Shown in pieces: positions 10,356 through 29,628 of a DNA stretch of 64,000 nt. The position numbers and the translations under genes were made by a program. The notes below the pieces were generated by a model. It saw only the letters and a program-made list of their open reading frames with translations, was not told where the DNA came from and ran no database searches. Origin of the DNA: Microthyrium microscopicum (Eukaryota); assembly GCA_010405405.1 (NCBI GenBank), contig MU004231.1, forward strand, positions 2,557,860-2,621,859, written 5' to 3'. Every line of letters starts with the position of its first letter. Position 1 is the stretch's first letter.

Positions 10356-12320
10356 ATGGCTTCTGCTCGTCTTGTCTCCAAAGGGGGCAGGCTTCAGCAG
10401 CCTGTTTGCAATACCCGTAACAATCTCTTATCAGTCAATGGAAGTCAAAGACGATACAAGGCTGATGCTGTAGCCGAGCGAGCTACACCGACTAATCACG
10501 TTCCCCCTTCAAACCAAAACCAACGAATGCGTGCCAAAATGGTAGAAAGAGAATTCTTTGAATCTGTACTTGGCGCTTCGGCCACAAAGCGAGATGCAAA
10601 AACATTTCTCTCGCGGTTTACTGCAAAGCCTAGCAAAGAGAAACCAGCATCAGCAGCTACCGAAGAACGTGGCTTCCATGCCAAGATCAATCTAGGAAAT
10701 TTATATACACCCACCAAGGCAATCGCAAACAGTCCTGTGTTTACCCAGCAACCGTCGGAAGACTTTCCTAATAGGACAGATGGTCTCCTTCATACGTCGA
10801 TAGTAAAGATCAGTGACCTTCGCAACATCGACGATGAAACCTTGAATGGGATAGCAACAACTCTTGTTCAGCTTGGTAGACTTGGTGTCCGATTAGTAAT
10901 TGTCTTGGAGGGTTCGCCCGATGGGATCCGGGAGGACACCCAGGATTTACTTCAGCAGGCTAGGAGAGTAGTTGATGTGCTGCACCAAACAAGCGAGCAC
11001 GGAGCCAGACTTGTTGACCACTCATTTGCTTTCCTTAATGGATCAGAAACTGGAAATGGTGCCATTTCAGGCTACGGGAATCTGGAATTTCAACTCAAAG
11101 ATCTATTGCTATCACCGCTTACAGAAGGAATCATTACTGTAATTCCACCGCTTGCCCAGACTTGTGGGTCACGAGTGGAGAAAGTAGAGGCAAACTATAT
11201 CATTGCTGCGTTGACAAAGTACTTTGCCGATCAAAACAGCGTTAAAGAACCTACTCAAGGGATCAAGACCATTCTGGACAGGATAGTGTTCCTGGATCCC
11301 ATTGGAGGCATGCCCAATCCCAAAACAGACGGCAATGCTCATGTTTTTGTCAATCTGGCTCAGGATTACTCAGAAATTCGCGAAGATTTGGAGACAACGT
11401 CTACTGGTGCAATGACACCCGACACTTCACACCAACATCTGGAGAATCTTGAATGTATTCAAAAATGCTTGGCTATCCTGCCATCTACGGCTTCGGCTCT
11501 GATTGCAACTCCATTAGAAGTTGCCAAATCATCTAGCAAATCATCCTCTATATCTACCACTGGAGTCTTCACTAGACCAAAACGAAATGCTCTAATACAC
11601 AACATCCTCACAGACAAACCATTAGTGTCCGCCTCACTACCGCTTGCTCGACTTTACGATGCCGCTCAATTAGACGCAGGTCAACGGTCAAGCTCAACCT
11701 TTTTCAAAAACGGCATGCCCCTTACTATTGTTCCTGACCCACGAGTCGCGATATGGTCGGATCCTGGCGTAGACAAAAATACCTTGGAGCTAGACAATGA
11801 TCCCCGAGTAGACTGGCCGAAGCTCGTTCATCTAATCGAAGATTCATTTGGACGCCCGTTAAACGCCGAACACTATCTAAAGCGCATCCAAAATCGAGTC
11901 GCTGGAATTATCATCGCAGGCGACTATGAAGGCGGCGCTATCCTTACATGGGAGCAACCTACTGGTCGGCCAGGCAGACCAACAGTCCCCTATCTGGACA
12001 AATTTGCGGTTCTACGTCGCTGTCAAGGCTCTGGTGGCGTTGCAGATATCTTGTTCAACGCCATGGTCAATAGATGTTTTCCAGAAGGCGTGGTATGGAG
12101 GAGTCGTCAAACCAACCCAGTCAATAAGTGGTATTTTGAACGGGCTACGGCGACCTGGAAAATACCGGAGAGCAATTGGACGATGTTCTGGACTGGAAAT
12201 GAAGTTGATTTTGGTGCGAAAGGGATGGTCCCGGAAGATGTAAAGGAGCGATGGCTGGATTATGTTGCGGTTTGCTCACATATTGCTCCTAGTTGGGCGG
12301 ATCAAAAACCACCAGATTAA
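10356..12320 (+). CDS. ARG2: Mitochondrial amino-acid N-acetyltransferase (N-acetylglutamate synthase; Neurospora arg-14 type)
   Basis: Intronless ORF with an Arg-rich presequence and REFF.SVL.ASATKRDAK.FLSRF. C-terminal DUF619/GNAT domain with YLDKFAV, WRSR.TNPVNKWYFERA and WTMFWT. Confidence 0.93.
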   Translation: MASARLVSKGGRLQQPVCNTRNNLLSVNGSQRRYKADAVAERATPTNHVPPSNQNQRMRAKMVEREFFESVLGASATKRDAKTFLSRFTAKPSKEKPASAATEERGFHAKINLGNLYTPTKAIANSPVFTQQPSEDFPNRTDGLLHTSIVKISDLRNIDDETLNGIATTLVQLGRLGVRLVIVLEGSPDGIREDTQDLLQQARRVVDVLHQTSEHGARLVDHSFAFLNGSETGNGAISGYGNLEFQLKDLLLSPLTEGIITVIPPLAQTCGSRVEKVEANYIIAALTKYFADQNSVKEPTQGIKTILDRIVFLDPIGGMPNPKTDGNAHVFVNLAQDYSEIREDLETTSTGAMTPDTSHQHLENLECIQKCLAILPSTASALIATPLEVAKSSSKSSSISTTGVFTRPKRNALIHNILTDKPLVSASLPLARLYDAAQLDAGQRSSSTFFKNGMPLTIVPDPRVAIWSDPGVDKNTLELDNDPRVDWPKLVHLIEDSFGRPLNAEHYLKRIQNRVAGIIIAGDYEGGAILTWEQPTGRPGRPTVPYLDKFAVLRRCQGSGGVADILFNAMVNRCFPEGVVWRSRQTNPVNKWYFERATATWKIPESNWTMFWTGNEVDFGAKGMVPEDVKERWLDYVAVCSHIAPSWADQKPPD

Positions 12321-12507
12321 GTGTAATGGATTCATTATGTTGTTATTTATTTACAGACTTCAAGATGATGCGAGGCATACTCCCATAAGCGGCAATGGCT
12401 ACCACCAATGCTACTAGCCAGATGCTGCTTCAATTACCATCACACTCGATTGAACGATCAAGGCTAAGCGCCAGTGGCACATAACGCACTCGCTGCTGAA
12501 TTCCTCG

Positions 12508-14643
12508 TTAATCCAGTCGATCCAATGCAATGGAAACCATACTGGGGTTCTTTCTCGTCCATGGCAAAGCCACCTGGTGGGAAAGCACCTTTCGAACATA
12601 CAGTCTTATCTGGCTCCAGTAACATAATAACGTCGCCGCGACGAATAAAGGTCCAGTAGCGGCTACCCAGACCCAAATACTCAATCGAGTACCTAACTCT
12701 CGGAAGTTCATACCGAAGAAACTAGTACTAAACGACAAGGGTAGAAACAGGAATGCAAGAACTGTAAGCCGTGTTGTAGATTCGGCTTGTAATGCCGCTT
12801 TCTGCATCTCTTTCAGTGATGCAGTGGTTCGAATGTCTTTGATAGATTCCCAGTGTGTGCTCAGATTTGCCTCCGCCTTTGCAATCAGCGACTCGTAGTC
12901 GTGAAGTAGCGAGTTCGCGGCTTGCTCTGCTTGAGACACTTGTTTGAGGTAGAAGGAGTCTTTGCTGCCACTACCTTGTGATGTTGTGGGGATTGACATG
13001 GCGGAGCTCTCACGTCGTAAAGGATCGGAATTATCATGAAGGCGGTCTCGCACTGATCTCCATCGCGTTCCACCTCTCCGTTTAATCCAGTCGATTACGA
13101 TGCGGTAATGTTGGATATGCTCTCGTAAAATTCCTCGGTGGTATGCGAAGTTATGGGCGACATAGTCGGGGTCGCCGTGCTGGTTCCAATGTGCTATATC
13201 TGCTTCCAGATTTGATCTCATAAAGTTTAGAAACTGATTCTCAGCACACGCGGAGAAGGCAAACAGTTCATGCAAGGAATAGAAAGCGTCTGCCTTCATG
13301 ATATCCGGATCCAAAAATCTCCCATAGAGTTTGGTTGGTAGCAGAGACATGCTTTGAAGGTAGGCATCAGGACCAGAGCGATCATGCGACTGCAAATCGG
13401 ACGCGTCCAAGTTCAAAAAACACATCCTAGACTCGGTCTGGATAGTAGGATAGAACATGTCGCCAAAGGGATTATGTGAGGCCTCAAACCATGGTCCAGG
13501 TGGGCCATCTGCAAGACTTCTCCCAGCGTCGAGAAGTATGATTGCTGAATGCAACTGTTAGTAAGATAGTTCTGAGTAGAGAAAGTGGTTTTTAAGTAGA
13601 AGAAATAGTTTTAAGAAACAACCTTCGAGAACGTACCTAGCCATCCTTTTCCTCTTTTCATTACGCTGATTGTTATATCTTGCTCTATTGAGTAATGTCT
13701 ATCATCATGGAATGAGTATTTTCTGACAATGGACTCTCCTATTAAGTCTGGCTTTGCCCCTAGAGATTGAAAGTGACGAAGCAGAGCTTTCTTTCCCTCA
13801 ACTCTGTTCTTTGTTGTTGGGTTTGGTCTTCCTAAGGTGTTGACTGGAAGTCTAAGAATGTTCTGAGATGCTGAAGGAAGTGCTGGTAAATCATAATGAT
13901 CTGTTATGGTTCCAAAAGTAAGCTGTCTTCGAAAGATCTCTGGCTCGACTCTATATTTCGAGCCAACTAGGTTCGCCCAATGCGCGGAAGGATAGCCGCA
14001 CAGGAATAGTAGCTGGCCGCATTCGTTCTGTGGTAAAGGATGGTTGGCAAAGGCTTCGAGGCCAGTGATAGAGTCAAATTTTGTCACTCTGCGGATGTCT
14101 AGAGGCGCGTAAGATAGGTCGTGAATTACTGCGAACGCATGCGGAGTCCTCGGCTGAGCTAATGATCGGCCAGGTCTGCTATTCAGAAAGAGAGAAAGAT
14201 ATCTGTAATGAAGGCCTGGATGGAGGCTTCGATCTTTTGACCTGTTGGAGAAGCGAGTGACAGCCGATGCGTAGTTCCTGGAACTGGTCAGTATAAGATA
14301 CTATCAGTGCTAAGAATCTCTCAACGCCTAAATGGTCCTGTCGGTGTGAAAGCATAAGGTGTACGCCATCGCATTCGGTGGTTACCACAGCACTATATCA
14401 GAAGCGCTTTCTATGGGAGCCATCGAATATGTTCGCAGCCACTACTAATTTTGGCATAATTCCAAGGTCATCAAGAACTTTCTTTGGATATGGGAACTCT
14501 TACTTTGGTTGGTGTTTCTCTTGTCGTTCTTGCGTACTACTACTGCCTTTCTGAGTACTGCTGTGGCCTTCTGAAGGAGTCGACTCGTGTGCCGACTCGG
14601 GACCTGCAGGTACTCCCGAGATTATAGGTAATGGTGAGGACAT
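12508..14643 (-). CDS. CorA-like (2-TM-GxN) membrane protein of the divergent fungal type, about 605 aa, 3 exons
   Basis: Exons 14643-14504, 14277-13637 and 13544-12508 join in frame with canonical GT-AG introns. C-terminal long stalk helix, TM1 LTVLAFLFLPLSFSTSFF-GMN-FRELG, TM2 IWVWVAATGPLFVAATLLCYW. N-terminal part has LLFLCGYPS..W...VG.KY.VEPE.FRRQL. Exon 1 is the least certain part. Confidence 0.85.
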
Positions 14644-15418
14644 TGCATAGTGATAGGCTGATAGCCTGATAAAATGATAATCAATGCACGCTTAGCGATC
14701 TCAAAGTTTGATAACGGGAATGAAAGCGACCTCCTTCGAGGCCAAGTAGTCGGGTCCTGTATATTCAAGCAAATCAGCTAGGAGGCTATACAGTCCAGCC
14801 TAGACAAAAGTTGAAAAAGCTTGTCATTTATCTTTGTGGCGCTGAAGCGCCGTCATAGCCTGCAATGTTGCATGAATGGTTCGCGACTAATCGCAGCACG
14901 CCTGGCTCAGCCTCAGCCTGACGGTGCTCACATATTGCGGAATAGGCGTACTGCATATAGTGTACATCAATACCATGAAAGCCATGCAGGATGAAATCCA
15001 GGGAGCTAAGCAGAGCATCCAATCAAAAACCGTGTCTTCACGCTGTCTGAACCTTTTCGAATTGGAATACGATGTTGTCAACTCAGCCTTTGTACGATAG
15101 CTCCATATCGTACATCATTAAAAGCGCAGACATGATGCTGCTGCTTCACTGTTTGCGGCATTGCTTCCACTCCTCCAATTCTTGATAAAACTCGTATGGC
15201 AGTATGGCGGATGTACCAGTCTTTGAAGCATTTCGGCATCAATATCACCACAAGTGTAAATAACGGTACAACTTCCCGGTAAGAAATCACATTTCCCAGT
15301 CCCATTCAGTTTCATAGGACTACTGAGCGGGTAGAAGATCAGCTCGTGGATACACAAACATCAAAAGGAGACAAGGTAAGGAAGCGGTTTATGGTGATTG
15401 CATCGTCTAGTAGTGATT

Positions 15419-18400
15419 TTACTGCGCCCAATTTGGAATGAAAGTGACAAGATCGTCTGGTCCTATCTTGCGGCCATGCTTCTTTGTGAGCCATTCAAGG
15501 TATGCTTTAGCTTTTTTCAAGCTACGGGAGGCCTCGGTGTCGAAACCAAGTTGACCTTGAGCATTCGAGAGCTTAAGTAGCGATTGTGCAATTTGTGCGG
15601 CATAGTCCTTTTTCTCTCCGTATATCTCCAAGCCTTTCTGAAACATCAGGCTATTACATGTCATTAGCATTGTACTGTGGAAGTAACCGCGCTATCTAAG
15701 CTTACCAGGCGTCCGAAGTTTGCTCTAGCTCCATATAGGCCAGGCCAATCTTATAATAGAGTGCGGCCACTCGATAATGCTGGGTACCTAGCGTCGTACA
15801 ATACTGAGCGAGTGCTTTGAGATAAAGGTCAAGACTTTCATCAATTCTCCTCTGACAACCTCTGACCTTTCCTAGCAGCAACAAGCCTAATCCCGGTCTA
15901 AAAGGTGATTAGTGAGCATTTGGGATTGGATGGGATGATTTACTTGAATGATTCCGTGTCCATAGGCCCAAATGTCTTCTCTCGATACTCAAGATATGGC
16001 TCCAGCACATCTGAAGCTTCTTGGTATCGTCCGAGACTGCAGAGACACATGCCTTTGTTCAGATATCCCCAGTCTGGGTAATGATCCGAGTGCTCGTAGT
16101 AACACTTGATAGCTGCTTCATGTTGTTCAATGGCGTCCTCAAACCGTCCAGCTCCGATATATGCTTCTCCCAGCTCGTTGTAGGCTTGCGCCCTTCTCCA
16201 GCTAAACTCCTCATTGTCTACAAATAGTTGCAGGCTCTTCTCCGCGTGCACAATGGCTGTGTCTGGTTGATTCATGATAGTCGCGATCTGGGCCAGGCAG
16301 CCCTCATTCTGCGCATTGGTGACATAAGTTGATTTTGCATCTCTCTCGCAGATCTTTTCAGCTGCTTGAAAGTATGGAATACTATCTGGAATGTTGCCTC
16401 TCTCGAAGTAGTACCTAGAAACGTCAGTCACTAAACATTTACCCAAATCAGTTCAACTTACCTTCCGAAATCCATGGAAAGCCGGGCAATATTATAGACG
16501 ACATGATCCAATGTCTTCAACATGTCACTTTCTCCATAGATACGAAGCATACTGGCAACGTGTGGCACTGTTGGCTCACATTTCTTTAGACGTTCCACGC
16601 TATGGTCAAACATGCTGAAAGGCCAAGTAATATATAAGAGACTCTGAACGCCATTGAACACAGCTTTGAAGGTATCGACATCCATTCGTGCTCTTGATGT
16701 ATCTTGAACAATACGATGGATTATCAGCTCCTTACGCTCCCTGTTGCGCTTGAGCAGAGACGACTTTGTCAACTCTGTTCTCGCTGCAACAAACTCCGCC
16801 GTATCTTGTGGATAATCTTTGATCCGGTCAATTTCTTCGACGTTGGCCATGTTCAATAGAAGTTCTTCTGGTATTTGATCGGGGTCAAGGAATGATATGA
16901 CGTAGAGCAGGGCCAGTGCCTGCGGAGACAAGTCCTCAAAGGCCCAAACGGTGTAGAGATTCTTTTGCACTGACATGACACCATCTTTGTAAAAGTCGGA
17001 CCGAACTGTCTCACGCTCGTATAGGTCCAAAAACTCAACGAAGTCGAGGTCACGGCGCTGTATGGTGCCTGCGATTTGAGTGATTGCTAGTGGAAGTCCA
17101 CTTAGCTTCGCTGCAATTGCCTCTGATGGTTCGACATCCGAGTTCTCATGGTATCCAGTGAGCTGTCGAAGCAGTGTGCCAGCTTCATTCGAGCCAAAAG
17201 GATCCAGGTCAATTCCACCAGCAACTGAAACATGTGATCTTGTTTTGGCTAAAGGATCTCGACTGGTGACGAGTATAGAACCATTTCCAGAGACAGGCCA
17301 GAAGTCGCGAAGAACAGAGAGATCATCAGCGTTATCAAACACAATCAACCATGTCGGAGCTGGTAACGTTGGATCGTCTGGATTCTTGGATCCTTCTTGA
17401 ATCTGTCTGACAGGGGAAGAGAGCCACTCAAGAACTAAGTCTTTGCTGACAACCTGGTCTGTAGCTTCTTCCTCGAGTCCGAGGCTCCCTGAAATCTCAG
17501 TGTATGACTGTGCTAATTTTCCTACCTCACTAGCTTGGAGGAAGAATACTGCGTCAAATTGCTTTTGAGCTTGAAATGCGAATTCGACTGCAATCTGTGT
17601 CTTCCCAAGCCCACCGGCTCCGCAGAGAGCAAATGTTTTGATACCAGCTAAGGTTTCTGTTTGAGACTTTTGGGGAATCAATTTCTCTGCAAGCAGTTCC
17701 AGCGTGTCCTGACGTCCGAAAAAGTCCTGGTTGCGATTGTGCGGCTTCATGAGGTACAATGGAAGATTAAACATCTTCTCATCTCCAGTCAGATCGGAGT
17801 TGAGAGGGATGATTTCGTAGCTTGCGTCAGACTGTACGCCCAGTGTGGCATCTCCAGTATTTCCAGGACTTACGGTTCGATGGACCAAGTCTCAAAGAAG
17901 GTTAGACGAGCGAAAACAGTTCAGCATAAACTTACCATTCTCGCTGGCGGTTATGGTCCATTCCTGAAGGCTTGCTTGCTCTAGAAATGTTAAAGACATG
18001 CTCATTTAAGCAGTCTCTTGCAAGCTTACCGTCGCCCGAAGCACTGAGAATAGTTGAGTTCTTTTCTACGATTGCAAAGAAGGCTCCCAATTTTTCCGTG
18101 AACGCGCTTGTCGAGCTAAGACTGCAGAGATTGTGATGATCAGAATCCACCTTGGTTACTTGCTCTTTGGGCAATCCTGTACGCCCAAATTGTTCATCAA
18201 CAAGCTGTAGCACACAATTAGCCAATCCTAGAGGGTGACTCTCTGGCGCCAAAAACATGAAGCCGAATAGACGACCATCTTTGCTGAGTGTAATATCTGC
18301 CATGATACTTCTTGACGGGATAATGCTTTAGTTCTCATCTTATTCGAATATGTTGTGATTAGTTGACCAACTGCATGATAATCAGAGCATCCTGTCTTCA

Positions 18401-19316
18401 AGAAGGCTGTGGCAGTCGCTCCAAGCTAGAGCATGAGGGCATGGAAACTGTAACTGAAAGCTTGACATACTAATTCTTTTCTGCTCACCATCATTTTTGT
18501 CTCTATCTTGGTGGTTTTCCCTTCAACGGCCGACAGTATCGGGACTGGTGTTCTAGACTCTTTGAAAGTTTGACATATCCGTGCTATAACAGAAACCTGA
18601 CCTGCGGCTTTGTTAATGTTATCCTTGGAAAGGTCCGTTGCGGCGCGAAGGAGAGCCGAGATTTTGAACCAAGTTTGTGGTTGTTCGTAGGTCAAATGGG
18701 GGCAGCCTAGAAAGACAATGCCGGATAGAATGCTGATGACTTTATCATAGTTAAGCTTGTAGTATTCCGCGTGTAGAGTCCCTATTGTCTGATATATATT
18801 AGCTTTAAGACCAATGTCAACAGATTGACAGACTCGTTTGGCAACAACGCCTCCGATTCCATGGCATATAAAAACCAAAGGCCTTCTCAAGAACTGCCCT
18901 CAGTTAGTATGTAGGTATATAACGTTGATGGACGGTGTTTCATTCCTTTGGATCGTCTTTTGCTGTGGAAATGATGAGCTCAAGTAGATTATCTCCACAC
19001 CTAGCCAGCTGTTCCCACGAGAAATTACTGCCCGAATTGGAAGCATACTGGTATTCCAAAACCAACGGCTTGTTGACTAAATTTGGCAGTACTGTATTGA
19101 GCCAGCAGTCGGATCCATCTTTCCATGAGGAGACACTGCTTTGTGTACCAACATCTGGAACAACAATCACACTGAACACAGGTTTACTTTATTAACCATT
19201 AACTAGTTTGAATGAAGGACTTACGTTGTGGCATGAAAATCCAAATACGTTGCTGCAGTCTTATGAACTGGACATAACTTCGCGTGTATGTTGAAATAGG
19301 ATGCAAGTCCAGCCAT
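15419..19316 (-). CDS. Fungal NLR-like STAND protein: degenerate SesB-like alpha/beta-hydrolase + NB-ARC + TPR, about 1079 aa, 10 exons
   Basis: Exons 19316-19225, 19171-18946, 18893-18834, 18788-18471, 18204-18030, 17980-17936, 17890-16462, 16414-15944, 15897-15706 and 15650-15419 sum to 3240 nt in frame. Motifs: RPLVFICHGIGG, GIVFLGCPH, VDSDHHNLC, RNQDFFGR, Walker A GAGGLGKT, Walker B WLIVFDNAD, GSILVTSR, GLPLAI, LIIHRIVQD and TPR-like helices. The intron 2 donor is non-canonical (see findings). Confidence 0.88.
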
Positions 19317-19934: not shown

Positions 19935-20764
19935 TCAGTATATCAGTAGCGAGCTATTACCCAGTGTCTTCGCCAATGCCAATATCTCTCCAGCGAGCAG
20001 TGTTGTTCCACTCGATGTAATCGGTTTTGATGGTTTCACATAACCTGTTGGTAGCTTCTCCTGGCCCATCCACTCCTCTACTGCTTTGCGAGGCGCGCTA
20101 TAGCTTGCACTGCTTCCTGCTGGTGGTGATCCCAGCGCCTGCAGTAGCAATGCCGATTCGCCATATGCCAATGTCGTTGCCTGCACTCCCAATGCTTTGG
20201 CACCACCCTTCTTGCTTTCGGCTTCACGGCGCGCGCGACTCTTGGCCAGTGTAGCAACTGTCAACGCTCCACTTGGTCCAGCATCAGCCAGAAGGGCGGC
20301 GAGGAGGGCTGGCTGGACGCTGTGGTTGTCGCCTTGGGATGCGTCGTTTCGGACGAGTGAGGCATCGTGCTCGATGATATCGTGCTTGCTGAGATCGGCG
20401 AGCATGATGGCAGTCGCACCTTTGGGAGCCACTTGGTTTGCACCTTGGGCGAGGGTTTTGGCGAATGATGGATCGATGTTGTAGAGTTCGATTACTGCCG
20501 CTGCGAGCATGTCTGCGGTGATGTTTTGGCCATTGCGGGGACTACGACGTAGATTAGTTTTTGAGACTCAGCTGAGGTTGGAAATGGGACATACAGAACG
20601 CCGACATTTGCGGCGGTGTTTAGAGCTGGGCAGGGACTTCTTGAATCGCTGGCTGCTGCAGCTTTCCAGACCTGTTCGTGGCCTGGTGGAGCTTGAGGAT
20701 AGCCGTTTGCGACTTTGACTGCTACGAGCGATAGAGACAGTAGGAGTTGGCTGGAATACATCAT
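19935..20764 (-). CDS. Secreted heme-thiolate peroxidase / short unspecific peroxygenase (Peroxidase_2 family), 2 exons
   Basis: Signal peptide MMYSSQLLLSLSLVAVKVANG; proximal RSPCPALN; intron 20542-20594; LPRNG.NIT; distal IEHDASL.R.D; acid-base Glu in AYGESALLL. Confidence 0.92.
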
Positions 20765-22641: not shown

Positions 22642-25600
22642 CTATGAGCTCGCGCTCTGGTCTTCCAAGAACACGGGTATCCCATACACCACAAGCGCTG
22701 CACCATTTAGATACCGCAAGTAACACTCCTCACGGCCAAGCCGCACCGCCTCTACCAAGCTCACTCGCTCCGTAGTTTTCACACCGCCTTTCGTTATCGC
22801 TCCTCGTCCTGCCCTCGAAGAAGTGGACGTTGCTTGTGATGATACAACACTTCTCGACTTCTCAGTATCATAGTTGCGCCGCTTGCCCTTGATACCAATC
22901 AACTTTTGCGTACCAGCACCAGGTCGCCACAGACCCCACGCCTCACCAGCTTTGACGCTTGCGCGATCGCAATCGCGGTCCGTCACATCCCACAGTGTGC
23001 CCACGACAGCAGGCGCGCCAGCCGCGAGGTAGCTAAGCACCATACCAGTGGCCTCGTAGTCGGGGCCATGAGTCTTGAGAGCGGCGGAAGAGCAGCCCAT
23101 GAGCCAAGTGGTAGGACACGAAGTCAGTGAACGCACACTGCGGGGCGAAATGAATTGGCCCCCGGATCCGTGGCCGAAGTAGAGGAAAAGTGATTCGTTG
23201 GCGAGCATGTCGGCGAAACCGGAATCGGCAGGCGCTGTGGTTGAGTGGACCCATTGAGGCTTGAGTGTGGATAAAAGGGGCTCGAAGATGGTTTGTGTTT
23301 TCTGAAGATCGCCTGATGGGTTTAAAAGGGAGAATCCGGAGCTTTTGGAGATGGTATGGCCTATGTTGGTGCCGGTTTTCATAGCGAGGATGCGAGTACG
23401 AAGACAGGAGAGCGAGGGAAGGCGCGATACATTGGTGCGTGCCAGACAAGGAAGCGATTCCCAAGGAAAAGCATGAAGCTCCTTGTCCATTATGAGAATG
23501 GTGTGCTCCTGTCCAGTGGATTCAGGGGTAATGGAGGCCGAGTGGTATGCTTTCAACGCATCGAGCGTGTCAATAACAAGCGAGTCAAAATCGACTTCAT
23601 CATAGGCGTTGCTCTCTCCTTTGAACTGGAGAATGTCAACAATATAGTACAGTAAATCAATCAAACTTTCGTCAATATCACAGTTTTCGTCACGGGGGTC
23701 TGGAAGGCCAGTAAAGAGTTCAAAGACTCGTGAATCCAGTGCAACAGCTTTGGGTTGTCGTTTGCCTTGCCGCGATGGCAAGTGTCGGTTGAGACTGACC
23801 CAAAGCGCTTTTTGAAATCGAGCAAGTAGCAATGGCTGGCGCTTTTGAGGAGAGAACACTCCTCGGAATCCGCCTAGCCATATCTTCTCAATGTTCAAAA
23901 CTAATTCGTGGATACGATTGTCCAGAGCCTCTCGATCAGCCCACCATCTCTTCTTCGATTCTCGGTCTTCTGAGTAGTTGTAGCCATGTGTGCTCTCAAA
24001 AGAATCCTGGATAATATCCCCGAGCTCGCCTTTGACTTCTTCAAATCCGAAATCCTCATCTATAGTCTGACTATGTGAGCTAAGTGGAATGTGAAGTACA
24101 AATGGTGTCTCGCCAGCACGGAGTCGAGTAACATAAAGCACGTCCTTCAAGGAGCTGAGCTTGATTGAGAAAGCGGTCCACGGCTGGGGAATAACGTCGA
24201 CGTAGTCCTCCTGGAACTTCGCGACAGTTATGACTTTAGGTATGTTTGCCATGTCCTCTTCCGTGAAGATGTACGATGGCCAAGCGCTTTGCTCCTCTTT
24301 GGGTATGTTCTCCGCATATAGCGAAATTGCTTGTGTTCTTTGCATCGCATTGATGCTAGGCATATCTATAACTTATTAGAATCGTATTGTACTTTCAGGA
24401 CCTTACAATGGCTTACCAAGTAACAAAGCCGCTTCGGTTGGATGAACAACGCATCCATTGTTGACCTGTGAAGCGGAAACAAAGACAGCAACGCCCGCCA
24501 TTATACTACCAAGTTCAGTGAACTCTGCGATAGAAGCTGTACGAATGGCGACTGGTTGTATAACAGCTAGAGCATCTTGAGTTTCCGCCAGTGATGATGC
24601 CAGTTCCACACTATCAGAGGGTTTAATGGATTTGCCTTTGGCTACTTTTCGAACAGTTCGTGTTTTTGCGACTGCATTATTCATTGTTGCGGATGCCTTT
24701 GTTGAACTTGAAAGAATGTCCTTTGTTTCAATCATGGACAATGCTGGTATAGAGATAGTAGACTCGGGGAGCATGCCAAGAGCACAATCTGAAGCAATAG
24801 ACTTCATGATGTGCTGGAGATTCAAGCGAATGGCAGCGAACTTTTGGCGAAAGGAAAAGTACGTTGACTCCTTAGCTTCTTCCAGTTCAGCAAGACAGTC
24901 TGAAGCTTCGGAAAGCCTATCCCGCGAAATCAAAGTTATAGCTTTGTCGATCAGCAGGCTTGATCTCAATGACTTCAATGGTGCACTTTCTGTGATTACT
25001 GGTCCTTGGGCTGCGGGTTTCGATCCCTTCAAAGTAGCTGTTTTTGGGGCGGGCTTCTTCTTTGTTGCAGTCACTGGGACTGTTCGTGGCGCTCCTCGGG
25101 CCTTTCGGGCTGTTTTGGCTGGGGCAACCTTCTCGTCTAGCTTCAAGTCCGACATTTTGGCAGCCAGGTCATCTTCGGCGGGTAGTGGAGTTGGCTTTCC
25201 AATAGGGGCTGATGTGGCCATTCCTTCCACTGATTTGATGGCAGAATCGATTGCTTCCAGCTCATCATCAACTTCTCCTCGGGCTTTCCACATTCGTGAA
25301 ATACTTTGATGATGGCGAACAAGTTCCATGCAAGGCTGAATATTTTCTGCCAATTCAACAGCTTGTTCAAGATGACGTTGACCGTCCTCTATTTTTCCAT
25401 CCGCAATCTTTTGCTCAGCCAACAAGCTCAAGTTGAATAGCTGTGATTTTGGAACGCAAAGCGTATTGACTATTTTCTCTGCACTGTCAACCCAGTAAAA
25501 TGCTTCTGCGTAAGCCCCGTGGTGTTTGTATATTTCGAAAAGATTGTAGTATGTACGAAGCAAGGCGGGAACCAGGTGCCACAATTTGGCTCCTTTGAGA

Positions 25601-28600
25601 GCATCGTGCGTTAGTTGTTTGGACCACTGATTGTTAGATTTGGTTGAGACATCCAGGGTACTGTCAACAAAGGAGTCGGAGCCTCGTTGGGGAACATGGC
25701 TTGGGGTAGAGTTCTCTATTATGGCCCAGTTGCGCTGCAATAGTTTGACGGCACATTTGGCATCTCGTAAGGCCCATGCAGCAAAGCCAGTCTGAAGCTT
25801 CAGCTTCGAAGCGATCAAAAGCGCATGGCTTAGGAGCTGATTGGTCTTTAAGGTAGAATTTACTTTTGATGTCTTTTCAATCGCAAGCCCAGGGCCCTGG
25901 TCCGAAATGCTTTTTACCGTATTGAGACATTCTTCACATTTGGAAGTGGCACCAATCGCAAGGAAATATTCAGCATAAGCGAGGAGATGCCTAACTTGTG
26001 TCTCCCCTGCTATTCCATGGTTTGTGATGATCGACTTGGCTCTAGCAAGGGTCAGGCCAGCACTTCCAGAATACCCTGCTCGAAGGTATTGCAAACTGAT
26101 GGAAGAAAAAGTATCGATCAGGGGGACAATACTACCCTCTCCTTGGCTAGACAGCACTGTTTGTAGAAGAGATAGAACTTTGAGCCTCGACTCGGACATG
26201 CAATTCGTTTCGAGAAAGTCGGCGAGTAGTTCGAGTTGCCGTAGGAATTCTGATGGTTGATCAACTCTGTCGTGAAGATTTTCAGGTGATTCTTGAACCA
26301 GTTTTCCCCAAATGGCAACAGACTGCTCAATCTGGGATATTGGGAAAGTGGATTTTGAAAGTGCTTGATAAACAGCGATGCTTGCTTGTTGGTGCTCGAC
26401 AAATCCAAGAAGCAGTTTGTCTTTGCTGCCAGCGCAAGCTTCCTCATTCTCGATGCATCCGGAAGACATTGCAGCAAGATCGGTTTCCAACACAGAGGGA
26501 AAGACGTGCGAAAATCGGGTGAGTAGTAAGATTATGCGCTGTCGGCGAATTGGATATCGTTTAGCGTCGTATATGTCAAAAATTGCGCGAAAGATGCGAG
26601 AAATGTAGTCAACCTGTTCCAAACCTCGAAATCGACCTGGAATAGCCAGCTCTTTGCAATATAAAAACAGTTGGCGCTCCAACAGAAGTACTCGAATGTC
26701 TTCGTCGAGGCGGGCATTGTCAAAAAAGCTCATAACTCTGCTTTCTCGCGCTTCGGTCTTCCAAATGAGATAGTGCAAGTTGTCTATACACTGTCTCAGC
26801 TTGGCGCTTTCTTCCAGAAGCCAAAATTGTTCATAAGTCACAGACCCAGCCAATTGAGTCAATGATGTTATCGAGTTATATTGAAGATGCTCGGATATCG
26901 CCTCCTCCAGATACTTCCTGGACTGATCGAAGTTGCCATAATGCTCGTAGTATTGAGCAAGGCCGAGGAGTTTGCTTGCAAGTGAGCCAAGCTGACGAGT
27001 TTCCAAGCTCTGATCCTGAAGTGCAGTAACGCTGCGTTTGGACGCGTCTAATTTCTCGGTGGTGGATGAAGCTCCGTCTGCGCTGGGTTTACGATGGAAT
27101 GCCCAGTACAGGCTAGATGCTTTTATTGCGACGTTGTCAGTGTTATAGCTGTCTGAACGACAATCTTCCAGAGTCGATGCCAAACTAAGTGAGTCCTGAA
27201 GTGCACTATCGAAATCTTTCCAGGCTAGTCCTCCATCTTTGAGCCCGGTTTTGCAACATAGAAACACAGAATCGCTGAATGATGGTGCTGCTGCTCGGGC
27301 CTTTGAAAGCTTCTCGCTGCGCCGTAAAGCTTGTTTTGGATCATCGATGGTGGTTTGATCTGGACCTACATAACGTAGTAGATATCGCAGACAGGCAAAC
27401 ACTCCATCTCGGCAAGCAGCTAAAATGTCGTTATGTGGCTGATCAATGGCTTCTCCGTGCATCTCTGATTGCAGTCGAGAAATCAGAGTACGTCGATATC
27501 CCGCGACTTCGAGTAAGAGTGCATCAATATCGCTGCTTTCTCCTCTAAGGGCCTGACCCATTGCACCATGTGCTTCGGCCATCGTCGGCAACAGCTCGTC
27601 AGAGACCTCAGCAGCAAGAAGAGCAAGTCTTGACACGCGGACTTTGCCGATTGCATCGCTGATAATAGTTGCGTTTCCACTTGGGATGGCTTCTTTATAT
27701 TTTTTCATCCAAAGGATTGCCACATCATATTTCGAAGCGTCCTGGGCGATAGAACTCATCAATCGGCAAATAGAGCTCCAGAATGGCTCGACTGTAGTAC
27801 TCGAGGTTTTGCACTTTGCATCAGCAACAGCCAAAGTGAGACTGGATATTGTCTGAGATGCGGATTCTAATACCAAATTCGGCGATCTCGTTGACCGTCG
27901 TGAAAATGCCGACAGACATTTGAAAATGGGTCTCCAAAAGTCTTTTCCGATATCCAGAGTCTGACAGCACGCGTGACACGACATTATCCGTGCTCGGTAT
28001 ATTAGGCTTTGCAATTGCAACGCCACCTCTGCTGAGACGTGTTCTTCGGCGGTCTCGTCGGCGTCTGTGGATATACTGGGACACAACGACAATATGAGCG
28101 CATAGAGCAACTCGAACTGACGTATGGCCTTTGATTTGTCGGTAGTCGTCTCGTGTTGCCGCAAGGTGATTTGCAACGGAGAGCTGTTGTTACTCAAATC
28201 GATATGCTTCGCAAGTGCATGGACTTCAGGCTTACGTTTTCGTGCTGCAATCAGTTTCATCACGCATTCTTGATATTTGCTGACGACTCCGAGTAGTTGG
28301 CCTTCATGTTGAGCTGCCGACCCAAAGTCGAGAAGATCGGCCAATAACTCTTTCTGTATCTGTCCTTCTTTGGATCCCTTGGCAATTTGTTCCGCCTTTT
28401 GCGCCTGTATTGGTTTCTTTCCCGAAGCGGACACCGCATCCAGTCTTCTCTTTAGTCCTCGTAACTCTTTTGCCGCAATGTTGTCCAACCCTAAAGTTAT
28501 GCACTTGCCAACAAAAGACAGCGTTCCATTCTCAGTCTGTAGATCTAATGTGCCCGGTGCATCTTGCTTCTTGGATCGCCGCATGTATTCAAACGCAATA

Positions 28601-29184
28601 TGAGCACACTCTGCGACAGAAGTAGCCCCAGCTGGTATTTGGCGCTTCCCACCATTCGTCGTCGATGTTTGTCGAGATAAGGTGCGCTTATCTGGCGAAT
28701 TAGGGGAACGGGAGGTAAGGGGGCGCGAATTCGTTCGGGCATGTTTTGCAGCTTGTTTCTGGGAAACAGTCTTTGCGGGTGAGCTCTCTTGGTTGTTGTT
28801 GACGCGAACCGTTGCCTGCATCTGCTTGACGGTGTCGGACAGCGTTCTGAGCGCGATATTGATGGTCTCGATCGCGACTCCATATTTCTCAGTTGTAGAC
28901 AGCGGAGACGGTTCTTCCACAAGTACCTTGATCGGCACCTGAGCTCTCGAGCTCGTAGTGTTTGCTCTCGATCGAGTAGAAGCTTTTGTTGTGGCGCTTC
29001 GCGCAGATGATATGGGTTTCCGACTATCAGCGGCTTTTCTAATGGTTTGCTCGGAGGCAGAGTCGGAGTCCGAAGATATAAATCCCAAAAGTTGTTTCAA
29101 GGTAGTGAGTGTCGCAGTTGAGCATGTGGTAGTGGATGACATTGCCTGTACGACGGAGGTATTATCAGCTCTCGAAGGAGCCAT
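22642..29184 (-). CDS. ESP1: Separase (peptidase C50; ESP1/cut1/bimB), 2 exons
   Basis: 1593-aa and 573-aa ORFs joined in frame by intron 24366-24416. Motifs WW..RE.LD, FPWESLPCL...VSRLPSL and LLNPSGDL..TQ; catalytic LYFGHGSG and LMGCSS; VVGTLWDVTD.D.D. Confidence 0.96.
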
Positions 29185-29628
29185 TTTTGGATGATATGTA
29201 AAGGAGGAAATAAAGTAGTAGGGATTCAGGCATTAGACATTACTCAGAGTTGAGACCCATGGTGTGTTCTTGCATGGACATGATGTTGTCGAAACTTTTA
29301 TTTACTAACACGGCGCGAGGTTACCAATAACCGCGCTTACCGCGCACAAGCGCTGCGAGCGAAATATCGTGGAAGGTGCAAACCAATGGAAGGAAATAAC
29401 CTTACTCTTATTTTAACTTCACACCTCAAAGAGCTTGAATAGATGGGTATCATGAATTAAATATTTACGAAAGAAAATGTGGTTTATGACGGCGCTTTCA
29501 AACGCTCTTCTGGCATAAAATAGCTCAGACTGGGGGACCAGGCCCTTTTCCACATATGCAAACCCAACTCCAAGTTCATATCTCACAAATGTTCAGAGAT
29601 CGAATATGCTCAGCACTTCATTGTTCAT

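Follow-up and report, generated by a model that had tools for sequence, protein, structure and literature searches.

The present analysis concerns a 64-kb stretch of the genome of Microthyrium microscopicum (Dothideomycetes, Microthyriales), referred to below as the window, in whose coordinates all positions are given, and two neighbouring genes within it: one coding for a NOD-like receptor (NLR) with a hydrolase-like head, an NB-ARC module and tetratricopeptide repeats (TPR), the other for a protein resembling CorA cation channels. A preliminary description of the window, made from the sequence alone, had placed the NLR gene 775 bp upstream of the co-oriented CorA-like gene. This arrangement was recovered in full, with both genes on the minus strand (Table 1), and no second NLR gene was found in the 64-kb window.

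Table 1. Positions of the two genes, their domains and motifs, and the flanking genes in the window.
Feature	Position	Strand	Details or basis
NLR gene	15419..19316	-	ATG 19316, stop 15419-15421; nine exons; 1094 aa
NLR exons 1-5	19316-19225, 19171-18946, 18893-18471, 18204-18030, 17980-17936	-	gene model
NLR exons 6-9	17890-16459, 16411-15944, 15897-15706, 15650-15419 (including stop)	-	gene model
Non-canonical GA..AG intron, 52 nt	18894..18945	-	joint 18893/18946, plus-strand ends CT..TC, X1 contig depth 167
Putative degenerate N-terminal alpha/beta-hydrolase-like head (SesB-like/DUF676-type), residues ~32-305	18030..19171	-	alignment with relatives and AF2 model
Nucleophile elbow HGIGG (His117-Gly121)	18849..18863	-	Gly118 in place of the catalytic Ser of GxSxG
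NB-ARC and DUF7779 exon	16459..17890	-	Pfam NB-ARC E 1e-6, DUF7779 E 1e-31
Walker A/P-loop GAGGLGKT, residues 411-418	17598..17621	-	sequence
TPR sensor region (putative), residues ~790-1094, last three exons	15419..16411	-	Pfam TPR_12, TPR_1, TPR_2, TPR_10
Spacer, NLR stop to CorA-like ATG	14644..15418	.	775 bp; spanned by run X1 contig
CorA-like gene	12508..14643	-	ATG 14643, stop 12508-12510; three exons; 605 aa
CorA-like exons	14643-14504, 14277-13637, 13544-12508 (including stop)	-	gene model
Membrane part: stalk/TM1 helix end (to 537), loop, TM2 (550-585)	12571..12783	-	AF2 and Pfam
GMN signature Gly538-Met539-Asn540 within FGMNF (537-541)	12706..12714	-	sequence
ARG2-type N-acetylglutamate synthase	10356-12320	+	flank downstream of CorA-like gene
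Peroxidase_2 (heme-thiolate peroxidase), two exons	19935-20764	-	between NLR and separase
Separase (Peptidase_C50)	22642-29232	-	beyond Peroxidase_2 gene, upstream of NLR

The exon lengths of the NLR gene total 3285 nt, equal to 1094 codons and a stop, and the translation is 100% identical to the database protein P0047 (BT63DRAFT_421538). The translation of the CorA-like gene is likewise 100% identical to a database protein, P0001 (BT63DRAFT_154624), and the two database proteins are encoded on the same 4,495,203-bp contig.

Splicing was analyzed with contigs of a public sequencing run, X1, which contains 90% of the sampled words of the stretch and whose kind, unrecorded, was guessed to be RNA. 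The X1 contigs bridge all ten predicted introns (eight in the NLR gene and two in the CorA-like gene), a pattern expected of spliced transcripts. On the gene strand the intron ends are GT..AG in nine of the ten cases and GA..AG in one. This last intron, located in the NLR gene, holds an in-frame TGA (18937-18939), from which the gene might be taken for a pseudogene; that reading was rejected because an X1 contig joins 18893 to 18946 and the annotated protein P0047 skips the TGA-bearing intron as well. Both genes are intact, and their exons are joined by X1 contigs over every intron.

One X1 contig, running from 17890 to 14503, spans NLR exons, the stop codon, the spacer and exon 1 of the CorA-like gene, and another (12400-14277) extends from the CorA-like gene past 12400 toward the convergent ARG2 gene. 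Adjacent genes thus have transcribed regions that touch or overlap; a contig covering two genes is no proof of one shared transcript. Each gene also contains one unusually long intron (18205-18470, 266 nt, in the NLR gene; 14278-14503, 226 nt, in the CorA-like gene), the others measuring 45-92 nt. Both long introns are also covered unspliced by X1 contigs of lower depth (record 3, depth 27.7; bin depth 22.9).

The CorA-like protein had been described as divergent, with an intact GMN motif and two transmembrane helices, and all of this holds. The Pfam CorA profile (PF01544) matches residues 465-564 only, a stretch of 100 residues (E 4e-9, above the gathering score), and a phmmer search against solved structures retrieved CorA at E 0.17 only, over the membrane part. 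The AlphaFold2 (AF2) model of the protein, obtained with 90 relatives (pLDDT 87, pTM 0.82), shows strands within residues 94-265 and helices at residues 454-537 (a long stalk), 550-568 and 570-585. The best Foldseek matches of this model were all to Thermotoga maritima CorA, over approximately 500 columns (E 1e-6, prob 1.0, TM 0.43-0.55 by target). All elements of the CorA architecture are thus present in the predicted protein: the cytoplasmic alpha/beta domain, the stalk helix with FGMNF at its end, and the second membrane helix. The features of the CorA/MIT superfamily, namely a GMN closing the first membrane helix and a C-terminal pair of membrane helices after a long stalk, are present, and the GMN is retained in 79 of the 90 aligned family members. 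The model thus shows the partner of the NLR with a full CorA fold including the GMN.

A profile built from 11 relatives of the CorA-like protein was searched against 1.84 billion representatives and gave 7884 matches at E<=1e-3, 2916 at E<=1e-10 and 971 at E<=1e-30. All of the best 150 matches include the N-terminal domain, which is the family's own, and the majority cover nearly the full length of the profile. The nearest relatives of the window protein are just 36-45% identical to it, and over the same three nearest pairs the identity is 36-41% for the CorA-like protein versus 45-49% for the NB-ARC region of the NLR. The partner thus diverges faster than the NB-ARC region of its own NLR and does not look like a housekeeping protein. 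It belongs to a separate fungal family, patchy, expanded and fast-evolving, with hundreds of divergent lineages.

The NLR was modelled at full length by AF2 with a pLDDT of 83.5. Its Walker A motif is intact, and G414, G416 and K417 of the motif are invariant among 40 relatives; the adjoining DUF7779 is the winged-helix part of the NB-ARC module. Residues 374-773 of the model align to the NB-ARC module of tomato NRC3 (9ria_C) with a Z score of 19.2 and an rmsd of 3.3 over 312 residues. The C-terminal third gave structural matches to TPR proteins with Z scores of 20-28, in a comparison of the full model whose list was filled by TPR matches.

The N-terminal head is homologous to alpha/beta-hydrolase heads: it aligns lengthwise with the heads of the 40 relatives, among which Pfam found Abhydrolase_6 in 19, DUF676 (PF05057) in 13 and PGAP1 in 11. 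No Pfam hydrolase family was matched by the window head itself. In the AF2 model (pLDDT mostly 85-93 over the head) a strand at residues 112-117 leads into the nucleophile elbow, followed by a helix at 120-129 and a beta-alpha-beta series. The elbow reads HSLGG in most relatives. The window head lacks the catalytic Ser of GxSxG, and its closest relatives share the Gly (HGLGG, HGFGG, HGNGG); the putative triad His is retained in the window head and in most relatives. The preliminary description had judged the hydrolase domain catalytically dead, and at the level of the motif the head is indeed predicted to be so.

Recurrence of the pair was assessed in metagenome contigs of the Joint Genome Institute (JGI), which were scanned with the CorA-like alignment alone, using patterns of the membrane part and confirmation by tblastn. 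The scan yielded 26 loci; all of them were then searched with the NLR protein, and Pfam was run on their open frames. Seventeen (L001-L017) are loci of the CorA-like family, and nine of these, having at least 3 kb of flank on at least one side, are informative. Contigs of 1.2-3.1 kb made the others (L004-L008, L011, L015, L017) uninformative for neighbours; one of these short contigs, L005, gave only a weak match to the TPR tail (E 5e-4).

An NB-ARC NLR gene is the immediate neighbour of the CorA-like gene in six of the nine informative loci. It lies directly upstream and co-oriented in L001 and L009, as in the window, and is divergent in L002 and convergent in L010 and L013. In the sixth, L014 (3391-9562), the CorA-like gene is followed by an NB-ARC gene of another clade, without DUF7779, and then by a HET-domain gene. 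In L016 the NLR gene is 5.3 kb away with a peptidase M20 gene in between, and in L012 an NB-ARC fragment, detected by tblastn only, is found 9.6 kb away at the edge of the locus; L003 contains no NLR.

No NLR match was obtained in the nine weak non-family loci (L018-L026, 92 kb), which make a weak control because some of them are perhaps not fungal. A survey of fungal genomes gives a mean of 46 NLRs per genome among the 122 strains having any, 20% of them of the NB-ARC type (PMC4986451). From this density the chance that an NB-ARC NLR gene is the direct neighbour of a given gene is well below 1%. The binomial probability of six or more such neighbours in nine loci ranges from 5e-15 (p = 0.002) to 1e-6 (p = 0.05).

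The pair was also found in named fungi. The NLR and CorA-like proteins of Cladophialophora immunda (Eurotiomycetes; OQU94534.1 and OQU94535.1) and of Lophiotrema nucula (Dothideomycetes, Pleosporales; KAF2120273.1 and KAF2120274.1) carry consecutive accessions, each couple on one contig. A partial gene model of Letrouitia sp. (Lecanoromycetes) runs from NB-ARC/TPR directly into the CorA-like protein of the family, and in Aspergillus mulundensis (Eurotiomycetes, Eurotiales) the 1808-aa model DSM5745_01288 consists of a complete NLR followed by the CorA-like protein. In Diplogelasinospora grovesii (Sordariomycetes) the NLR and the CorA-like protein each derive from a 95,678-bp contig, and linkage is probable. 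Of the three NLRs from named fungi that are closest to that of the window, two are shown to be linked, the third being that of Xylariaceae sp. FL1272. The pair is therefore conserved across Dothideomycetes, Eurotiomycetes and Lecanoromycetes, and probably Sordariomycetes too. The recurrent adjacency that the preliminary description had proposed to look for was thus observed in six of nine informative metagenome loci and in five named fungi, D. grovesii being the probable one. A lack of linkage in other genomes, which that description had named as refuting its proposal, was accordingly not what was found.

The preliminary description had set the pair between ARG2 and separase. Both genes do flank it, and the statement is slightly simplified because the Peroxidase_2 gene intervenes before separase, so that the immediate flanks of the pair are ARG2 and peroxidase. 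Other genes surround the pair elsewhere: an oligopeptide transporter (OPT) and glutamine synthetase in L001, TRAPPC10 and peptidase M20 in L010, a rhodopsin-type gene in L002, an amidase in L009, and MUS81, Rad10 and a glutathione S-transferase (GST) in L016. The relative orientation of the two genes varies as well, co-oriented, divergent and convergent pairs all being present. The pair is not part of a frozen neighbourhood, since both flanking genes and orientation vary. The related loci L010 and L016 both have a peptidase M20 gene close to the pair (10613-12121 and 14937-16241, respectively), on different sides of the NLR gene, which points to an inversion that left the three genes near one another.

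Trees were calculated for the NB-ARC region and for the C-terminal part of the CorA-like protein in 12 pairs. The same groups appear in both trees: the window with C. immunda and L001, then L. nucula; Letrouitia with L002; L010, L013 and L016 together; and L014 apart. The patristic distances of the two trees correlate with a Mantel r of 0.87 (p 1e-4), or 0.79 without L014, a correlation that orthologues from the same species would show too. The congruence of the two trees answers the other comparison that had been proposed. C. immunda, a Eurotiomycete, is placed with Microthyrium and L001 in each tree, and L. nucula, a Dothideomycete, falls outside this group (SH-aLRT support 98 in the NLR tree, 86 in that of the partner). 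Such a placement fits a pair inherited or moved as a unit; its cause could be ancient paralogy or joint transfer of the two genes.

The elbow of the head was compared among the linked NLRs. Nine linked heads were readable, a count that omits C. immunda (model without the segment) and Letrouitia (model without the head). The nucleophile is replaced by Gly in seven of them (window, L001, L002, L010, L013, L016 and L. nucula) and is still Ser in two (L009 and A. mulundensis); the probable partner in D. grovesii is also of the Ser type (HSLGG). Further drift of the elbow was seen in linked heads, with the forms QGLGG, SGLGG and HGLSG. The catalytic Ser is thus lost in most of the linked NLRs.

Several CorA-like proteins of the family carry additional parts. 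Those of an ENA contig (P0307), Whalleya microplaca (P0331) and Polycauliona sp. (P0333) have N-terminal extensions of 400-700 aa. The extensions of P0307 and P0331 contain His, Asp and Ser motifs in the order of chymotrypsin, and that of P0333 aligns over the His region only. The nearest named Atlas clusters of the P0307 extension include Peptidase_S64 (15%), Nal1/Nal1_C and trypsin families, with scores of 0.89-0.92; Pfam gave no match to the three extensions, even at E up to 5. These trypsin-like extensions could be true fusions or merged models of neighbouring genes and serve as a lead only. In P0288 (Apiospora kogelbergensis, 994 aa) GPIID_WHD and ankyrin repeats come after the CorA-like part (residues 30-519), without NACHT between them; the protein probably results from a merger or fusion with part of a NLR of the NACHT/ANK type, which would be a second NLR class beside the family. 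The model P0169 (Xanthoria mediterranea, 1014 aa) runs from a CorA-like member into a different multi-helix membrane protein, not a NLR.

These findings identify the NLR and CorA-like genes as a conserved, co-inherited two-gene module of the Pezizomycotina. The two genes are very likely to be functionally coupled, and the module probably combines a receptor with a channel for cell death or self-defence. As to the direction of the coupling, the proposal that the CorA-like channel is the output, or executioner, of the NLR has in our estimate not quite an even chance. It is based on the consideration that a NLR with a non-catalytic head needs another output, and that the only constant neighbour is a channel-like protein. 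Also counted for an effector role are the CorA-like members that carry or abut other upstream modules, either the trypsin-like extension or the winged helix with ankyrin repeats, and the precedent of a CorA-family immune effector in type III CRISPR systems (PMC10600005).

A tentative mechanism can be outlined, in which the activated NLR oligomer would dock by its dead hydrolase-fold heads on a dedicated CorA channel and open it, the cation flux being the death or alarm signal. The TPR domain would sense a ligand or a perturbation, and the NB-ARC switch would respond by nucleotide exchange and then oligomerisation. The clustered non-catalytic heads would act as adaptors engaging the cytoplasmic funnel of the CorA-like oligomer, a pentamer by analogy with CorA. 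The channel would be forced open or deregulated, and divalent-cation flux or depolarisation would arrest or kill the cell, in immunity or in allorecognition.

An amyloid relay by templating of the HET-S type was considered and excluded because the NLR and its partner have no motif in common: the best BLASTP match between P0047 and P0001 has an E value of 5.3, with nothing at the termini, and the N-terminus of the NLR is a full domain. The preliminary description had likewise seen no amyloid motif.

Several points speak against the channel being the output of the NLR. Just mentioned is the lack of any motif shared by the two proteins in the BLASTP comparison. Linkage is not universal, given the absence of a NLR in L003, the non-adjacent genes of L012 and L016 and the different downstream neighbour in P0169, and the named pairs come from cross-matching two match lists, a procedure that favours positives. 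For most named members the neighbours are invisible; among these are Alternaria, Mollisiaceae, Neonectria, Xanthoria, A. ochraceoroseus and several lichen fungi. The HSLGG elbow is kept in the NLRs of L009, A. mulundensis and probably D. grovesii, so that in some members the head may have remained an enzyme. An ordinary cation transporter would equally show a complete CorA fold and a conserved GMN. In PLP-1/SEC-9 and Bcvic1/Bcvic2, the two characterised fungal pairs of a NLR and an adjoining non-amyloid partner, this partner is a monitored protein and not an effector.

The two pairs just named are precedents for a guard or allorecognition system, which we regard as the main rival explanation of the present pair, though clearly less likely than not. 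The CorA-like protein, bound by the TPR domain, would be monitored as guardee, decoy or polymorphic ligand; an altered or foreign allele would fire the NLR, and death would be executed by the head of the NLR or by something else. PLP-1, with a patatin head, NB-ARC and TPR, binds incompatible SEC-9 physically and has been proposed to act as a guard (PMC12881547). In Botrytis, Bcvic1, with a PF05057 serine esterase head, NACHT and ANK, adjoins the syntaxin gene Bcvic2, with which it jointly controls incompatibility (bioRxiv 10.1101/2022.04.03.486892), and PF05057 is the family matched by 13 of the 40 relatives of the window NLR. In Morchella importuna, one of the two candidates linked to vegetative incompatibility is mimpvic32, a polymorphic gene with a CorA domain (PMC8940278). 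This gene, which may or may not belong to the present family, fits either an effector or a guard; its candidate partner has no NLR domain.

Close linkage and congruent trees fit a guard pair as well as an effector pair. The known guardees, however, are SNAREs, among which SEC-9 is reportedly essential, and the CorA-like family instead outpaces the NB-ARC region of the NLR and comprises hundreds of divergent lineages; such fast divergence is unlike an essential guardee. In addition, PLP-1 kills through its catalytic head (PMC12881547), whereas seven of the nine readable linked heads here have lost the nucleophile, so that the NLR has no obvious means of killing.

A relay through an enzymatic head is improbable. 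The hydrolase-type head would make or remove a small molecule or a lipid that gates the CorA-like channel, in the manner of SAM-AMP, by means of the Ser in the members that keep it and perhaps of another residue in the others. The HSLGG elbows of the L009, A. mulundensis and D. grovesii NLRs and the retained putative triad His could serve such an activity, and a ligand-gated CorA effector has a precedent (PMC10600005). However, the replacement of the nucleophile by Gly in seven of nine readable linked heads and the drift of the elbow to QGLGG, SGLGG and HGLSG argue against it, as do the lack of any match of the window head to hydrolase profiles and the fact that a ligand-binding domain was not identified in the CorA-like protein.

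It is quite improbable that the pair has a non-immune housekeeping function, in which the STAND ATPase would serve as dedicated regulator or chaperone of a CorA-like cation transporter, without any link to cell death. The complete CorA fold, the conserved GMN and the X1 contigs that join the exons of both genes over all introns would be expected of such a pair too. On the other hand, a hydrolase-type head combined with NB-ARC and TPR is an architecture of the fungal NLR repertoire (PMC4986451, PMC9815663), the CorA-like family is patchy, expanded and fast-evolving, its similarity to canonical CorA is marginal at the sequence level, and a HET-domain gene stands beside the pair in L014. Adjacency without function, by chance or through an old neighbourhood passively conserved, could be invoked if the window pair were the one observation, given that fungal genomes hold conserved micro-synteny, and is highly improbable in view of the immediate NLR neighbour in six of nine informative loci, against an expectation well under 5%, the flanking genes that are not conserved, the changes of relative orientation and the spread of the pairing over four classes (Sordariomycetes probable).

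A NLR that signals through the CorA-like channel would be of interest since few fungal NLRs have an established output or partner: HeLo/HELL pores reached by an amyloid relay, gasdermins cleaved by proteases, and SNAREs that are monitored. The hydrolase-headed (SesB-like) class makes up approximately 13-14% of ascomycete NLRs and is among the largest (PMC9815663). A conserved gene partner for a SesB-like subclade is a concrete, testable hypothesis; it adds a CorA-fold channel as a new protein class to the fungal repertoire of cell death and immunity, and would explain how the head could lose its catalytic Ser. If the proposal is true, the pair would be the first eukaryotic pair of a NLR and an ion-channel effector, a fungal counterpart of the channels that plant resistosomes form and of the CorA effectors in bacterial type III CRISPR systems, and the CorA-like family would be a general immune output module, coupled also to proteases and to ankyrin-type sensors. 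The ion flux of plant resistosomes, the CorA effectors of prokaryotes and fungal allorecognition, including the CorA-domain candidate of Morchella, would then be connected. The large fungal CorA-like family, annotated so far as Mg2+ transporters, may have been misread. In a lichen fungus, an expansion of CorA-type genes that may belong to the present family was read as nutritional adaptation (PMC3897900).

The preliminary description knew of no fungal NLR-CorA system, and none was found described in the openly accessible literature searched, in which PMC9815663 was covered by its main text. The term CorA does not occur in that text, where the analysis of neighbours was restricted to proteins of 200-400 aa, nor is CorA mentioned in the NLR papers PMC4986451, PMC12881547 and PMC12258605, in which the strings "cora" belong to "coral". 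The literature found on CorA together with heterokaryon incompatibility held no such pair.

Among known systems, NWD2/HET-S and PNT1/HELLP resemble the present pair in that the gene of a NLR is clustered with that of a membrane-acting protein, a unit thought to be kept for co-inheritance (PMC12881547, PMC9815663). In those systems the NLR carries a short N-terminal amyloid motif that recurs in the C-terminus of the effector, whereas the window NLR has a full-size head, its partner is a CorA-fold channel and not a HeLo or HELL domain, and no terminal motif is shared.

The pairs PLP-1/SEC-9 (HET-Z) and Bcvic1/Bcvic2 likewise place a NLR, with NB-ARC and TPR or with a serine esterase head, beside the gene of its partner; plp-1 and sec-9 are said to be adjacent. 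As in a pair of the PLP-1/SEC-9 type, the present NLR gene stands next to that of a partner and is kept there across lineages, and the head of Bcvic1 is of the same Pfam type (PF05057) as that of 13 of the 40 relatives of the window NLR. The partners in those pairs are SNAREs and here a divergent CorA-like channel, and the patatin lipase head of PLP-1 is catalytically required, whereas most heads here have no nucleophile.

The HET-Q1/HET-Q2 clusters of gasdermin and protease have in common with the present module a membrane executioner clustered with its activator (PMC12881547), and a trypsin-like domain is part of, or adjoins, some CorA-like members. A gasdermin fold is absent here, and proteolytic activation of the CorA-like protein is a lead only. 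The mimpvic32 gene of M. importuna is similar as a polymorphic CorA-domain gene genetically linked to vegetative incompatibility. Its product is longer (765-773 aa), and the second candidate lies 13 genes away and has no recognised domain (PMC8940278).

The canonical Mg2+ channels CorA, Alr1, Mnr2 and Mrs2 share with the CorA-like protein the overall fold, the GMN and the two C-terminal membrane helices, as judged from the match to T. maritima CorA. They differ in that sequence similarity is marginal, a comparison made with Pfam CorA and with CorA of the Protein Data Bank (PDB), and in that the present family has a conserved N-terminal domain of its own. In type III CRISPR systems a CorA-family membrane protein is the output of an immune sensor (PMC10600005, PMC12255297), as is proposed here, and the effector is activated by SAM-AMP (PMC10600005). 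Those systems are prokaryotic, gated by a nucleotide that Cas10 makes and devoid of a STAND or NLR protein, whereas a signal-making enzyme is not evident in the present pair.

The plant CNL resistosomes (ZAR1, NRC) are similar in two respects: the NB-ARC module of the window NLR is structurally close to that of tomato NRC3, and the coupling proposed here would likewise link a NLR to cation flux. Plant resistosomes act as Ca2+ channels. In them the channel is built by the N-terminal helices of the NLR itself, whereas in the fungal module a separate, dedicated channel gene would serve this function.

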